DNA of 64,000 nt from Escherichia phage PECP20: sequence record OQ873415.1. One strand, 5' to 3'. Below, piece after piece: positions 8,313 through 58,586 of the stretch; the stretch's first letter is position 1, and each line of letters starts with the position of its first letter. A program made the position numbers and the translations under genes. Under the pieces are notes generated by a model. It was not told the DNA's origin and did not search any database. It saw only the letters and a list, made by a program, of their open reading frames with translations.

Positions 8313-8334
8313 AAGGAATCCCGAAGGATTCCTT
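8313..8334 (-). terminator. intrinsic terminator-like UUCG hairpin after soc
   Basis: Minus RNA AAGGAAUCC-UUCG-GGAUUCCUU followed by UUUUCGUUUC; 8 nt after soc stop. Confidence 0.5.
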
Positions 8335-8609: not shown

Positions 8610-8617
8610 TATTTATA
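8610..8617 (-). promoter_or_regulatory. T4 late promoter core TATAAATA upstream of soc
   Basis: Plus-strand tatttata about 35 nt upstream of soc ATG. Confidence 0.5.
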
Positions 8618-8623
8618 ACTTAA

Positions 8624-9145
8624 TTAGTAACCATTATCCTGACGTTCAAAGTTGTGTTGGTTTTTCAAGTAGTAAAGTTTAAAGATTTCTTCAGCAGAAA
8701 GACCAAGACCTTGGAACATATTTAGAACGAAATGCAGAATATCAATCATTTCAAATTTAATTTCAAGCTGGTCTTCAGGAGACAGTTCATCGATACGACG
8801 ATTTCGATATTCAGCATGTTGTGCTTTCCATGGCTTCCATACACTGCTAGCGGCTTTTTCACCATTGCTCATACCACCAAGTGAAGTCAGCAGTTCACGG
8901 AATTCATCATCAATATAATCTTTCTGATTACGCAGCCAATCAACAACATCACCAGCAGTAGCCAATTCATCAGGATGTTTGTTATGTTCAGGCTTGTCAT
9001 TTGCCAGACGAACCTGTAAAGATTTCTGCATATCAAGCATTACCTGCAGTGGGTCTTTATCTTCGTGAATCAGAGCATTAAAATAAGCTTCTTCTGCTTT
9101 ATCAACACCAGAAATAAGTTGTGAACATTCATTAAAGTGCGCCAT
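8624..9145 (-). CDS. 56: dCTPase/dUTPase (gp56)
   Basis: Strong similarity to T4 gp56 as recalled; start set at MAHFNEC ATG (9145) rather than track start 9160. Confidence 0.9.
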   Translation of the reverse strand: MAHFNECSQLISGVDKAEEAYFNALIHEDKDPLQVMLDMQKSLQVRLANDKPEHNKHPDELATAGDVVDWLRNQKDYIDDEFRELLTSLGGMSNGEKAASSVWKPWKAQHAEYRNRRIDELSPEDQLEIKFEMIDILHFVLNMFQGLGLSAEEIFKLYYLKNQHNFERQDNGY

Positions 9146-9233
9146 TATTTTTCCTTTCAATTCAGTATAAGAGAGTTAATTCTAACATTAATTTTATAAA
9201 GCGTAATAAATAATAGGTAACTAAGGAGATATT

Positions 9234-9431
9234 ATGTTTAAACTTCCATCGTTAATCAACGCTATTAAAGGCAATAAAAAGAAAACTGCTATCGCCGCAA
9301 TAGTTGTAGGTGGCATTATTTCATGGAACTTCGGGATTGCACCATTGTTAGTTGCCCATGGTATTATAGTTCCTTCTGTTCCATTGGATACTGTAGTTGA
9401 TTTGGCCTTTGCTATTATAGGGCTTGTTTAA
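9234..9431 (+). CDS. small hydrophobic membrane protein (65 aa)
   Basis: Only convincing plus-strand ORF; AAGGAG 7 nt before ATG; Gly/Ile-rich predicted helices. Confidence 0.5.
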   Translation: MFKLPSLINAIKGNKKKTAIAAIVVGGIISWNFGIAPLLVAHGIIVPSVPLDTVVDLAFAIIGLV

Positions 9432-10450
9432 ATCTTCGAATAACGAGATAATCTCATTTTAGCATGCAACCCACTTGAAATATTCTGTTTCATATATTCT
9501 AAAATTTCTTGTGGTGTTGCATTTTCTTTCATTACCATATCATTCACATCCTTTGAACTCCATGGAGCTCGGTCCCAGAACATAACACGTTCGCCTGCAT
9601 CTACTAATCGCTTCATACGAGCTATAGTATCCGGATGCCTAGGTTCATTATCCATCACCCATACCCGACGTTCTTTAAATGGTACCACATCTAAATCTAT
9701 TGAACCGCCTGTAATAGCGATTGCATTGGGTATGAATAAACTATCAATAGGGCCTTCCATTACCCAGACGTCTCCTTCCTTAACACGTTCAACACCATAA
9801 ATTTTTGTTGCAGACTCAAACGCTTTAATAGTTATATATTTCTGAGGAGCATCTTTGCGAAGTGCACGTCCTTGAAATGACTCAGCCTTCCCGTCTTTAT
9901 TAAAAATAGGAATCACTAAACGCGGTTCTGGAATCTCTTTCTTATACGTGCCTGGTTGAATCTTGTTGACCAATTTAGGCCATTCTAATGTGAACCATAA
10001 TCTGTTCCACGATTCTTTAGGAATACACCGAGACTTAACATATTTCACAATAGGATGCTCTTCAGGCAACTTGTCCAGACGAGAACAAGACGGCAAAGAA
10101 TTTATAGTCTTTTTCTCCGGTTCTGGTTTATGTTCAGGAACCTTTTCAATCTTTGGTTCCATTCTAGCTTTTTCTTTACGAACTTCCATTAGATATTCAC
10201 GATAAAGCTCTTCGTCATACTCTTTTAAGTATCCGGAAATCGTATTATGATATTGACAGTTATAGCAATGCACATTACCTGGAGTACCGCCATAATACCA
10301 TCCGCGGGCTTTCATTGCATCTGTCTGAGAGTCGCCACAAACTGGACAACGAAACGTTAATTTAAATGTGCTTGAATTATTGATTTGTCTAAAACGAGGT
10401 AGGTGAGAAAACGCACGATAAGCAAATTCATTATCTATCCATTCAGCCAT
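9428..10450 (-). CDS. 61: DNA primase (gp61)
   Basis: 340 aa; zinc ribbon CPVCGDS...CYNC and TOPRIM region near-identical to T4 gp61 as recalled. Confidence 0.95.
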   Translation of the reverse strand: MAEWIDNEFAYRAFSHLPRFRQINNSSTFKLTFRCPVCGDSQTDAMKARGWYYGGTPGNVHCYNCQYHNTISGYLKEYDEELYREYLMEVRKEKARMEPKIEKVPEHKPEPEKKTINSLPSCSRLDKLPEEHPIVKYVKSRCIPKESWNRLWFTLEWPKLVNKIQPGTYKKEIPEPRLVIPIFNKDGKAESFQGRALRKDAPQKYITIKAFESATKIYGVERVKEGDVWVMEGPIDSLFIPNAIAITGGSIDLDVVPFKERRVWVMDNEPRHPDTIARMKRLVDAGERVMFWDRAPWSSKDVNDMVMKENATPQEILEYMKQNISSGLHAKMRLSRYSKI

Positions 10451-11175: not shown

Positions 11176-11835
11176 TTAACCTCGATTCATAAATGCATTA
11201 AATATTTGGTCATCAACAGAAATTTCTAATTCGGCTTCAATTGCTTCAGCCTTTTCTTCAGGTGGTAATTCGTATCCACACACTACAATTTTTTCATCGA
11301 TATCAAAATATACAGAAGCAATACGATTAATGTTACTTTCAGTTAAGTCTAAATCAACATCAACATCTTTTTGACCTACACTTAAAGGATAACTAATACG
11401 GGTTATTTTATTATCTTTAACAAAGAGTCCACCAACATACTCTGTACTACGTTTGAAGTTTACACGTTTCCGAATTGAAAGATATGATACATCTTTACCG
11501 TGAGCTCGGCTCATAGGACATAATGAATAGCTAGAATAAGAGATGTCAAATCCTACACCTTCAATATGAGCCAACGTGTCATGAGTAAACCAATTATAAT
11601 CATATGCCAAATCCATTAAATTATAATATGTGAAAGGCACTGGATTAACATCATATGTTGTACCTTTAAAATCAGCCCAGGCAACGATTTCGTTATCTTT
11701 AACAATTACAAAAATTACACCAATATGGTATCCGTTATTATTTTCATTCGGCGTTATATTATAACATTGTGCATTAGGAAATTTACCATATTTAAATGGT
11801 GCGTTTTTGTGCATGTAATAAATCATATTATTCAC
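11176..11835 (-). CDS. hypothetical protein (219 aa)
   Basis: ORF; no motif recognised. Confidence 0.6.
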   Translation of the reverse strand: MNNMIYYMHKNAPFKYGKFPNAQCYNITPNENNNGYHIGVIFVIVKDNEIVAWADFKGTTYDVNPVPFTYYNLMDLAYDYNWFTHDTLAHIEGVGFDISYSSYSLCPMSRAHGKDVSYLSIRKRVNFKRSTEYVGGLFVKDNKITRISYPLSVGQKDVDVDLDLTESNINRIASVYFDIDEKIVVCGYELPPEEKAEAIEAELEISVDDQIFNAFMNRG

Positions 11836-12121
11836 CTGTGATTTCGGTTACGATATCTTTGTTATCGAAATTAGGGTCACAATACAAAACATAGTTGTAC
11901 TGCATGATACCGCCAGACTTAAGTTGTTCAACAACTTTATTAACCATATTAGGACGGTCTCGTTTAGTGATGTTCATGATATCAGAGAAGATTTGTTGTT
12001 CAACATCTTCTTGATTTGCAGTCATTGACCACTCACAGAGGTCTTTATCATAACCTGCTGTAACTGGAGCTGGTGCACATGATACTGCGAGTAAGATTGC
12101 TGCCAATGATAACTTTTTCAT
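11828..12121 (-). CDS. putative lipoprotein (97 aa)
   Basis: Signal peptide with lipobox LAVSC (MKKLSLAAILLAVSC). Confidence 0.6.
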   Translation of the reverse strand: MKKLSLAAILLAVSCAPAPVTAGYDKDLCEWSMTANQEDVEQQIFSDIMNITKRDRPNMVNKVVEQLKSGGIMQYNYVLYCDPNFDNKDIVTEITGE

Positions 12122-12184: not shown

Positions 12185-12433
12185 TTATTCTTTTTCGCGA
12201 ATAATAATTACTTGTTGAGGCTGCTGAGCAGATTTCTTTTCGGCAACGATAGACCAAATTAAAGTTCCAATCCAACCAATCATCGTCCAGTTAAAGAGTA
12301 AAGATACAAAGAAGATTGCTGTTGTGCTTTTTGTGCCACGAATAAGTGCGATTACCCAAGGCAACATGTAAATGATGATTGAACCAATACCTGCGATTAA
12401 AACTGCCACTGAACTAGCTACGAATAATTCCAT
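12185..12433 (-). CDS. small integral membrane protein (82 aa)
   Basis: Two to three hydrophobic helices. Confidence 0.6.
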   Translation of the reverse strand: MELFVASSVAVLIAGIGSIIIYMLPWVIALIRGTKSTTAIFFVSLLFNWTMIGWIGTLIWSIVAEKKSAQQPQQVIIIREKE

Positions 12434-37813: not shown

Positions 37814-38029
37814 TTAAGCCTTTTTATCAAGAACAGCATTCAGCTTGTTAGTAATTTTATCCAGACGCTCATTGAACTCACTAGAAGATAAGCCCTTTTC
37901 TGGAGAAATTAAACTAATCACGAAAAATACACCAGTAAAAGGAATAAGAAAAATAGCTCCAACTGCCATAAACAAAAAGAACGTTACAGTTGTAAGAAAA
38001 TCAGCTAAACCTTTACGAAATTTATACAT
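37814..38029 (-). CDS. small membrane protein (71 aa)
   Basis: Two hydrophobic helices. Confidence 0.55.
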   Translation of the reverse strand: MYKFRKGLADFLTTVTFFLFMAVGAIFLIPFTGVFFVISLISPEKGLSSSEFNERLDKITNKLNAVLDKKA

Positions 38030-38140
38030 ATTTACCCCTAATTAATTAACCAAGCATTGATAAGCAAACCATATTGCGAATAAAATTCTGGACCAAAATG
38101 AAAAATCATATCATTTATAGTATCCATAATGTAATTCAAT

Positions 38141-40895: not shown

Positions 40896-40934
40896 GATAA
40901 ACCCTTACCTTAAATAGATAAGGGTATTTATAAT

Positions 40935-48333: not shown

Positions 48334-48364
48334 ATTTACCTCAAGTTAAGGGTTATTTATCTAC

Positions 48365-49354
48365 TTATTTATAGTAAGAATTATGATTTTCGAGATAGAC
48401 TTGCTCAAGGAAATCATCCCAGAAACTCATATCTACTTTTTGTTGCATACCATTCTTGGCAGCTTGTTCTGACGCATGTTCAACTTGGTCAACGATATCT
48501 TCTAGGAATTCTTGTACAGTTTTAAACGTATGTTTACCAAGCTTAACATCGAGAATAAATGGAGCATCCTGAAGTGGGTAAACCAGGTCGCCGGTTTTGT
48601 AAATTTCCAATAATTGAAGTCCACCACGACATGCATGACTCAATGCTTTCCAGTCAATACCTTCGTTAGCTTCTGCTTTACGAGCACGTTCACCATAGTT
48701 CTCTTCCAGTTTAACCAGGATAGCATTGAACTCTTTATTGGTTAACGTGTCTTGGAATTTACGGTCTAACAGACTATAGAATGTTTGCTTACCTGTTTTC
48801 TCGTTTTCGGTTTCAACCCATGAAGCAAATTCACCTACAGGTAGAACATTCTTCATATGTGATAAACGAATTACTGCACCATTATCAAAGTATTGTCCCC
48901 ATTCATTAGAACGTTTAAGGGCTTGACGAAGAACAGCCAGTCGAGAACCCTTGACACCGTATTTAGAAGCTTGCTTACGGACGTACCCTAAATAAGATTT
49001 CATGTTAGTGGTATAGAAACGAGACCTGTTATCTTGAATATACTTCCATACATCAGGCAAATCAGATTTAACTACTAGACTTGGTGGAGTATGAAGCATA
49101 TCTAATGCGACGGTTTCACCATCTGCAGCTAGTTTAAAGAAATATTTGAGACTATATAACTCATGGTCTACGTCGTCTTTTGTGTTCTTAGAAGATGTGT
49201 TATTCGTGTTCTTGCTCATATGTTCTTTAACGTTACCGGTCAAAATATCACGAGCATGAGGGACATAAATTTCTTTAAAATCGACGTCAGATTCAGGAGT
49301 AGACGTTCCATAAAGGTGGCTACCAAAGTAGCTTTTCATAATTGTTTTCATCAT
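48365..49354 (-). CDS. nucleotidyltransferase-fold protein (Pol-beta superfamily signature)
   Basis: 329 aa; N-terminal FGSHLYGTSTPESDVDF fits the G[GS]-x9-13-D-x-[DE] minimal NTase motif. Confidence 0.7.
   Translation of the reverse strand: MMKTIMKSYFGSHLYGTSTPESDVDFKEIYVPHARDILTGNVKEHMSKNTNNTSSKNTKDDVDHELYSLKYFFKLAADGETVALDMLHTPPSLVVKSDLPDVWKYIQDNRSRFYTTNMKSYLGYVRKQASKYGVKGSRLAVLRQALKRSNEWGQYFDNGAVIRLSHMKNVLPVGEFASWVETENEKTGKQTFYSLLDRKFQDTLTNKEFNAILVKLEENYGERARKAEANEGIDWKALSHACRGGLQLLEIYKTGDLVYPLQDAPFILDVKLGKHTFKTVQEFLEDIVDQVEHASEQAAKNGMQQKVDMSFWDDFLEQVYLENHNSYYK
48366..48373 (-). promoter_or_regulatory. T4 late promoter core TATAAATA upstream of 48145..48333
   Basis: Plus-strand tatttata about 35 nt upstream of the ATG. 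Confidence 0.45.
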
Positions 49355-51519: not shown

Positions 51520-51732
51520 TTAATTTTGGCCAGTATTTATTTTTCGCCTTTGGACGGCCTTAACATCTGTGAGGTATTTTTCCAGCTTGCGCTTGCGTGT
51601 ATAATCAGCTTTAGAACCAGTTTGACGGATATCCTCGTTTAAATGAGAAATAGAATGTCCTAATTCTCTTCGGATTTCATCCAATTGGGTTACAGTAAGA
51701 TTACGAAGTTGTCTTTCGTTTAATTGCTGCAT
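51520..51732 (-). CDS. hypothetical protein (70 aa)
   Basis: ORF; charged. Confidence 0.5.
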
Positions 51733-51759
51733 ATATACCTCTTGGTTAGATATTAGTAT

Positions 51760-52341
51760 TTATAACAACCCTGTCAAATCATTCCAATGCTTCCGGCATA
51801 ATGACACATATCTATCGGTATCACCAATTTCAATTTGACTGCCATCTGTAATTGGAAGTCCGTCTTCCGTGACTCTAGCTACCATTGTGGCCTTTTTACC
51901 ACAATGACAGACACCTTTAAGTTCAACAAGCTTATCGGCAATAGCCATTAATGCTTGAGAACCTTCAAATAGATTACCTTTAAAATCTGTTCGTAGTCCA
52001 TATGCCATTACCGGCACATTGTATACGTCAACAATACGACTAAGTTGATACACCTTTTCAGTAGTTAAGAACTGAGCTTCGTCAACAAATACGCAGTGAA
52101 TATCCTTTTGTGCTGCAGCCCATTTATAGAATTCAAAGATATCCATGTCTTTTGTAATTATATTGGCATCCTGACGAATACCAATACGAGAGACTATTTC
52201 ACCTTTTGAATCACGAGTATCAATAGCCGGTTTAAGAACTAATACACCCATGCCACGTTCTTTATAGTTATGTGCGGCAGTAAGTAATGAAGCAGACTTA
52301 CCAGCGTTCATAGCGGCATAGGTAAAAATTAAACTAGCCAT
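51760..52341 (-). CDS. tk: thymidine kinase
   Basis: 193 aa; P-loop AAMNAGKS and Zn-ribbon CHCGKKA...C; matches T4 tk length. Confidence 0.92.
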   Translation of the reverse strand: MASLIFTYAAMNAGKSASLLTAAHNYKERGMGVLVLKPAIDTRDSKGEIVSRIGIRQDANIITKDMDIFEFYKWAAAQKDIHCVFVDEAQFLTTEKVYQLSRIVDVYNVPVMAYGLRTDFKGNLFEGSQALMAIADKLVELKGVCHCGKKATMVARVTEDGLPITDGSQIEIGDTDRYVSLCRKHWNDLTGLL

Positions 52342-55591: not shown

Positions 55592-55953
55592 TATAGACTC
55601 TCAGTAAAGGTACGAGCGATAACGTCACGCTGCTGTTCCGGAGTCAGAGAGTTAAAGCGAACTGCATAACCGGATACACGGATGGTCAGCTGCGGATATT
55701 TTTCCGGATGCTTAACTGCATCTTCCAGAGTTTCACGACGCAGAACATTAACGTTCAGGTGTTGACCACCTTCAATTTTAACTTTAGGTTGATGTTCAAT
55801 TTCAATTTCGCGGGCATGTAAACCGTAGAAAATTTCCGGGTCTACAATAGCGTCTTCTTTAAAAGTCTTAGAGACAATAATCCGGGCTTGAGTACCGTCT
55901 TCAAAATAAATAGTGCCTTTGTGTGTGCCTTCAAGAATTTGATATGCTTTCAT
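55591..55953 (-). CDS. autonomous glycyl radical cofactor (GrcA/YfiD-like)
   Basis: 120 aa; C-terminal ~60 aa ([60 protein letters not shown]) match E. coli GrcA as recalled, including the RVSGY glycyl radical loop. Confidence 0.9.
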
Positions 55954-58576: not shown

Positions 58577-58586
58577 TATTTATTAC

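Follow-up and report, generated by a model that had tools for sequence, protein, structure and literature searches.

A conserved plus-strand gene next to gene 61 of T-even phages, with a late-type promoter motif and a probable small membrane protein as its product

Our comparative sequence data indicate that the open reading frame (ORF) at positions 9234-9431 of the window, by which we mean the whole 64-kb stretch of DNA analysed here, is a genuine conserved protein-coding gene of the T-even lineage. The window belongs to an RB69-like T-even phage (Mosigvirus). The ORF is read from its plus strand behind a Shine-Dalgarno (SD) sequence and a late-promoter-like motif, and it converges on gene 61, a position that its homologues hold in other T-even genera under purifying selection. 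From these features we infer, with moderate confidence, that the ORF is a late gene transcribed by gp55-RNA polymerase and that its product is a 65-residue bitopic membrane protein that would bind a partner and modulate a late event at the envelope. The gene is of interest because it appears to be a near-universal late gene of T-even phages that is absent from the T4 reference annotation. In itself, the ORF is an unremarkable member of a family already catalogued, whose function is unknown.

The ORF, its surroundings and its annotation

The 1.9 kb of the window around the ORF matches Escherichia phage CAU_ECP01 at 100% identity and many other phages at 97-99%. The ORF and its immediate neighbours are:

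9234-9431, plus strand: the ORF (CDS), ATG start, 65 aa, MFKLPSLINAIKGNKKKTAIAAIVVGGIISWNFGIAPLLVAHGIIVPSVPLDTVVDLAFAIIGLV, phrog_2024
9223-9228, plus strand: SD sequence AAGGAG, 5 nt before the ATG
9428-10450, minus strand: gene 61 (DNA primase), convergent neighbour; the ORF is always attached to it
8624-9145, minus strand: gene 56, dCTPase, the divergent neighbour
9428-9431, both strands: TTAA, in which the stops of the ORF (plus) and of gene 61 (minus) overlap

An earlier note on this DNA had described a hydrophobic 65-aa ORF with a strong SD on the plus strand between genes 56 and 61, and both the sequence and the flanking genes confirm that description. The automatic ORF call for gene 56 reaches a TTG at 9160, while the start at MAHFNE agrees with that of T4 and gives the coordinates listed. 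In T4, dam is inserted between gene 56 and the small ORF. It had also been claimed that this is the only plus-strand gene in a minus-strand region. The 64 kb contain 67 plus-strand ORFs of 60 aa or more, and ORF 9234-9431 alone among them both has an SD and lies clear of long minus-strand ORFs, which bears the claim out. One other plus-strand ORF, 37845-38045, is located outside long minus-strand ORFs; it was considered as a second plus-strand gene and rejected, since it lacks an SD and a 71-aa minus-strand gene overlaps it.

The ORF as such is already known since GenBank records list it. Many of these, among hundreds of phage records, give it as hypothetical (e.g., RB32ORF030w), as do many Mosigvirus records for identical or near-identical proteins. 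Other labels include "putative membrane protein" (HMD-9) and "putative transmembrane protein" (phage 107). The two T4 records NC_000866.4 and KJ477686 leave the ORF unannotated. In NC_000866.4, dam and gene 61 are separated by a 310-bp gap that contains the ORF, and GATAAATA stands 21 nt from its ATG, the same distance as that of the window's motif described below. T4 is the reference organism for this phage group, yet this "intergenic" gap in its record holds a conserved, selected gene with a late-type promoter signal. Work built on the reference annotation would skip the gene, be it the design of knock-down or knock-out libraries or the databases used in proteome searches. CRISPRi-ART, for instance, uses libraries against "all annotated CDSs" (PMC11879866). 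Because annotation-based screens target annotated CDSs only, the gene would have escaped them if the T4 reference annotation was used. A clean T4 mutant could bring to light a new small membrane protein with a part in late infection; if such a mutant had no phenotype, the gene would be one more dispensable accessory gene.

Conservation, selection and family membership

A tblastn search with the window protein matched 692 phage records, and searches with more divergent members as queries matched 914-945. The hosts in this wider set include Escherichia, Shigella, Klebsiella, Salmonella, Yersinia, Citrobacter, Enterobacter, Edwardsiella, and others. About 950 records, drawn from at least six Tevenvirinae genera (Mosigvirus, Tequatrovirus including T4, Gaprivervirus, Jiaodavirus, Kanagawavirus, and Dhakavirus), have a homologue in this place, pointing towards the 3' end of gene 61. 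This count is near the 966 records that carry a gp61 at least 60% identical to that of the window. In the loci fetched from the six genera, an ORF of 62-73 codons on the strand opposite gene 61 converges on its 3' end. Convergence on gene 61 is constant while the other flank varies, being dam in T4, gene 56 in the window, and a second paralogue in TH41. Among distant T4-like phages, no convergent ORF was found after gene 61 in Slopekvirus KP15, Krischvirus ELT3, Aeromonas SW69-9, or Acinetobacter Melin; in these four phages a co-directional gene comes straight after gene 61.

Pairwise dN/dS of the small ORF ranges from 0.09 to 0.36, and differences between close pairs fall mostly in third positions (e.g., 5/0/11 and 3/1/9 at codon positions 1/2/3). 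Frame +1 is the only frame free of stops in all 15 sequences. Antisense frame -2 is open in the window and in T4 and contains stops in other genera. Compared with T4-type phages, the window's gp61 has about 74% identity and its small protein 54%. By these comparisons, the small protein evolves faster than the primase yet is clearly constrained. An ORF this short, and one left unannotated in both T4 records, might be taken for a chance ORF with no function, but that reading is hardly credible and is already contradicted by the comparative data: the frame is intact across six genera at 20-55% protein identity, dN/dS is well below 1, and the SD and the motif are conserved.

Shortened or frameshifted copies occur in a few genomes (T4_ev240, ERS-1, and clusters of 41-56 aa), which suggests, unless sequencing errors are to blame, that the phages can do without the gene in the laboratory. 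In T4_ev240, a 1-nt deletion in an A-run (AATAAAAA-CGT, at about 2030 of the fetched locus) causes a frameshift after codon ~16. Either this evolved T4-like phage has truly lost the gene or the deletion is a sequencing error in a homopolymer, so we did not count it towards dispensability.

The protein matches phrog_2024 of PHROGs v4 over its full length (residues 1-65 against profile positions 1-65 of 65, E = 1.9e-27, 95.8 bits), a family listed as function unknown. Sequence searches of Pfam, NCBIfam, and PDB with the small protein returned nothing significant, and a Foldseek search of BFVD returned matches only to members of its own family. The first protein search missed the T4-type relatives; an exhaustive HMMER search with a Mosigvirus-only profile gave only 2 representative clusters, and an IMG/VR scan gave 7 loci. 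The wider family emerged from tblastn against the phage collection and from a mixed-genus profile. Against 5.8 billion proteins, the latter profile found 121 clusters, all of 41-74 aa. Where these clusters come with long contigs, the contigs are about 165-175 kb, and the named sources are T4-like phages or bacterial assemblies.

The family comprises two subfamilies. Type A is characterised by AIKGNKK…WNF…P..A.HG…P…LD..VD.AFA..GL and type B by FYQIWKL…WN.L.VP.AA.QG..LP.VT.EH. Gapriverviruses carry type A and type B in tandem, as in TH41, where the two copies occupy 2501-2698 and 2707-2907 of the fetched locus. The copies in CJ20 lie at 2501-2698 and about 2708-2810 of its locus. The second of them is decayed, with a nonsense mutation at codon 2 and an internal deletion that has left a hairpin.

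Late-promoter motif and the expected transcript

The elements that bear on transcription of the ORF, together with the other sites of the same motif in the window, are:

9205-9212, plus strand: AATAAATA, gp55-type late-promoter motif (consensus TATAAATA at -13 to -6)
8610-8617, 40925-40932, 48354-48373, 51534-51541, 51757-51764, and 58577-58584, minus strand: other motif sites, plausible late promoters
55905-55912, plus strand: motif site inside a minus-strand gene, the only orphan of nine
9179-9203, minus strand: CGCTTTA-12 nt-TAGAAT, by sequence comparison a probable positional homologue of the T4 MotA-box middle promoter

It had been suggested previously that a sequence one mismatch away from the late-promoter core stands 25 nt upstream of the ORF. 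The motif, AATAAATA, is present, but it reaches from 29 nt (5' end) to 21 nt (3' end) before the ATG, and 25 nt corresponds roughly to its centre. From the position of the motif, transcription is predicted to start at about 9218-9219. The single mismatch is an A for T at -13. The T at -13 of T4-type late promoters is poorly conserved, and A or T is common there (Nolan et al. 2006, PMC1524935). In our set, each of the six genera carries NATAAATA at 12-33 nt upstream of the start codon, with A, G, C, or T as the first base of the motif, and this base differs from TATAAATA in most genera. Two Kanagawaviruses, Q7622 and CIP9, have a perfect TATAAATA upstream of the small ORF. In 11 of 11 loci examined, GGAG(G) stands 4-6 nt before the start.

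We found that NATAAATA is depleted approximately 3-fold in the window, with 9 sites seen and about 29 expected. The full consensus TATAAATA was seen 4 times (7.4 expected) and VATAAATA 5 times (21.6 +/- 4.5 expected). Eight of the nine motif sites are located 12-32 nt upstream of an SD and ORF start, and two of the nine are on the plus strand. The promoter-like motif at the ORF is more than chance. The reading of AATAAATA as a late-promoter core with one mismatch has in this way been strengthened, through a position kept in six genera, the depletion of the motif, and the commonness of A at -13.

The genes that follow the six other minus-strand locations, identified from PHROG matches, are soc, gene 49 (endonuclease VII), a phrog_2243 ORF, rI, a phrog_1826 ORF, and endolysin e. 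The phrog_2243 ORF encodes 62 aa, looks secreted, and is preceded by two tandem motifs; the phrog_1826 ORF encodes 70 aa. The same AATAAATA variant as at the ORF also precedes e and rI in the window. The T4 counterparts of soc, gene 49, rI, and e are expressed late or have a late promoter. ORF 9234-9431 likewise has a TATAAATA-like element placed to start transcription just before its SD, and a sequence scan found no sigma-70-type promoter upstream of it on the plus strand. Judged by these sequence features, late expression of the ORF, with a start near 9218, appears well supported, though not proven.

The element on the opposite strand resembles TTGCTTA-13 nt-TATAAT of T4, its counterpart upstream of gene 56/oriA. 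It is 1 nt from AATAAATA, and the two would form an 88-bp divergent control region. In dam-less Tequatroviruses, the late motif lies inside the spacer of the middle promoter, and the two promoters might interfere there.

The timing implied by the motif bears on the earlier analogy of the ORF to the immunity and exclusion functions of T-even phages. The window carries two genes of this kind about 2.4-3 kb from the ORF:

11828-12121, minus strand: spackle (sp)
12185-12433, minus strand: Imm-family gene (phrog_1039, E = 1e-30), 82 aa, two-helix, adjoining spackle

T4 Imm and Sp are, like the product predicted here, small T-even envelope proteins from the same genome region, and proximity to their genes would suit a superinfection immunity or exclusion protein. 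However, sp and the Imm-family gene are on the minus strand, the early-gene strand, and Imm and Sp have a different predicted topology and no sequence relation to the small protein, which gave no match to phrog_1039 or to Pfam Imm_superinfect. T4 exclusion functions act within minutes of infection. At the sequence level, only a late-type motif and no early-type promoter was found upstream of the ORF, and a late promoter is a poor fit with early-acting exclusion. We consider such a role highly unlikely, and the analogy is left unsupported.

The 3' end of the expected transcript is of interest because, with the stops of the ORF and gene 61 overlapping in TTAA, no terminator fits between them. 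No terminator-like site was found on the plus strand downstream of the ORF before about 15046 in a scan of the window, and the late transcript would therefore run on antisense into gene 61. The same overlap of convergent stops is present in T4, a20, KIT01, CIP9, and T6, whereas in Mineola and CJ20 a hairpin lies between the small ORF and gene 61 instead. Just downstream of soc, 8313-8334 forms a perfect 9-bp stem-loop (AAGGAATCC-CGAA-GGATTCCTT) with a terminator score on both strands.

This arrangement raises the question of whether the functional product could be the late plus-strand RNA itself, pairing as an antisense transcript with the 3' part of the gene 61/early polycistronic mRNA, with help in its late shut-down as the role and the ORF as secondary. 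The overlapping stops, their retention in the five phages named, and the long terminator-free stretch all agree with such an RNA. Against it, selection has acted on the amino acids (the dN/dS values given above), the SD is conserved, some residues are invariant, and the hairpin of Mineola and CJ20 would stop read-through although the ORF is retained in both. An RNA as the main product is accordingly judged improbable, though antisense-RNA and protein roles could coexist.

Predicted protein and its candidate role

Hydropathy and an AlphaFold2 model divide the product as follows:

residues 1-17: N-terminus, basic and amphipathic, with a basic cluster at K12-K17
residues 18-41 (9285-9356, plus strand): predicted transmembrane (TM) helix with invariant W31, N32, and P37
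residues 42-50: loop containing G43 and P47
residues 51-62: predicted short C-terminal helix (AlphaFold2)

The AlphaFold2 model, built from a 53-sequence alignment, has helices at 4-11, 15-41, and 51-62 with a mean pLDDT of 81.6. The most hydrophobic stretch, residues 18-41, directly follows the basic cluster at 12-17, and the later C-terminal segment is too weakly hydrophobic to cross the membrane. All basic residues fall at positions 3-17; the C-terminus is hydrophobic (…DLAFAIIGLV), and its only charges are D52 and D56. Topology prediction, which the earlier note had named as a check, gave one helix long enough to span the membrane, and by the positive-inside rule an N-in/C-out orientation is likely. 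Hydrophobicity is nevertheless marginal in most members: the Hessa-scale sum for the best 19-mer is +0.8 to +3.6 kcal/mol, with CJ20 alone negative at -2.4, and for this reason membrane insertion is not certain. Taken with the model, these features indicate that the product is very probably a small membrane protein.

Three residues, W31, N32, and P37, are invariant in the 53 sequences, and M1, A39, G43, P47, and G63 are conserved in at least 90%, so that the conserved positions cluster in the membrane helix and the turn that follows. Judging from where the invariant Asn sits, the protein would act by binding another membrane protein. Small single-helix membrane modulators (<70 aa) offer a parallel in size, in their one TM helix, and in helix-centred conservation with a polar Asn, a likeness that is architectural only.

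We hypothesize that late in infection gp55-RNA polymerase would start from AATAAATA near 9218, that the resulting transcript would continue antisense into gene 61, and that the strong SD would direct translation into a bitopic inner-membrane protein. The basic amphipathic N-terminus would remain cytoplasmic, and the tail of ~24 residues with its short helix would be periplasmic. Since W31, N32, and P37 together with G43 and P47 are all found within the membrane helix or immediately behind it, the protein would most likely act through helix-helix association inside the membrane, its partner being a membrane protein of the phage or the host. Partner binding, rather than any enzymatic activity, would then modulate an event at the envelope late in infection, for example the timing or the inhibition of lysis. 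The link to lysis is more tentative than the rest of this scheme, and we regard it as doubtful: nothing ties the small protein specifically to lysis, and T4 lysis and lysis inhibition are already accounted for by t, e, rI, rIII, and the spanins. In the literature searched, we found no transcript, ribosome-footprint, proteomic, or mutant data and no functional report on the ORF.

Among known lysis proteins, the closest in outline is the T4 antiholin RI (phrog_1246). RI is a late N-in/C-out protein with a weakly hydrophobic signal-anchor-release domain, and its periplasmic domain binds holin T. The small protein is like RI in its size class, in its late-type promoter (the same AATAAATA variant in the window), and in having a single N-proximal, Gly/Ala-rich, marginally hydrophobic membrane segment. 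Unlike RI, it shows no sequence similarity, and ~24 residues follow its helix compared with a periplasmic domain of ~70 residues in RI. It gave no match to phrog_1246. Some members, such as CJ20, have a strongly hydrophobic segment, so membrane release is not a trait of the family. An i-spanin would have an N-terminal TM domain with a long periplasmic coiled-coil and be paired with the gene of an o-spanin lipoprotein; the tail of the small protein is too short for this, and no adjacent or embedded lipoprotein ORF was found.

A holin or pinholin-like lysis effector would also be small, hydrophobic, and apparently late-expressed, and the motif variant common to e and rI would suit it. Furthermore, the OE5505 homologue carries the name "Holin" in UniProt (UniRef/BFVD); this label is an automatic annotation, and we rejected it on architecture. 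Holins typically have a charged hydrophilic C-terminal tail, whereas the small protein ends in AFAIIGLV. Only one of its helices (15-41) is long enough to span the membrane, with the marginal hydrophobicity described above, and no holin family in Pfam, NCBIfam, or PHROGs matched it. Losing only holin T is enough to abolish lysis in T4, and thus the small protein cannot be an independent holin. We consider a lysis effector of this type very improbable.

A bolder version of the partner-binding scheme is that the protein is an unrecognised component of a classic envelope phenomenon, missed by four decades of T4 genetics and by the reference annotation. We think this unlikely. It could, for example, be a modulator of holin T or RI in lysis inhibition, or take part in a membrane step of DNA entry or exit.

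The late-type timing of the ORF is shared with structural genes such as soc. Together with conservation throughout the lineage, this would be consistent with a membrane-associated morphogenesis or virion factor, involved either in prohead initiation at the membrane or as a hydrophobic ejection or channel component. Trypsin would yield one short soluble peptide (LPSLINAIK) and a hydrophobic peptide of 48 residues, and virion proteomics could therefore easily miss the protein. The truncated copies in viable phages argue against such a factor, and on balance we see little likelihood of it. The T6 record AP018814.1 names the homologue "putative head morphogenesis protein", a label that we rejected as annotation noise; other names in the same region of that record are wrong, with soc given as "terminase small subunit" and gp56 as "ferredoxin".
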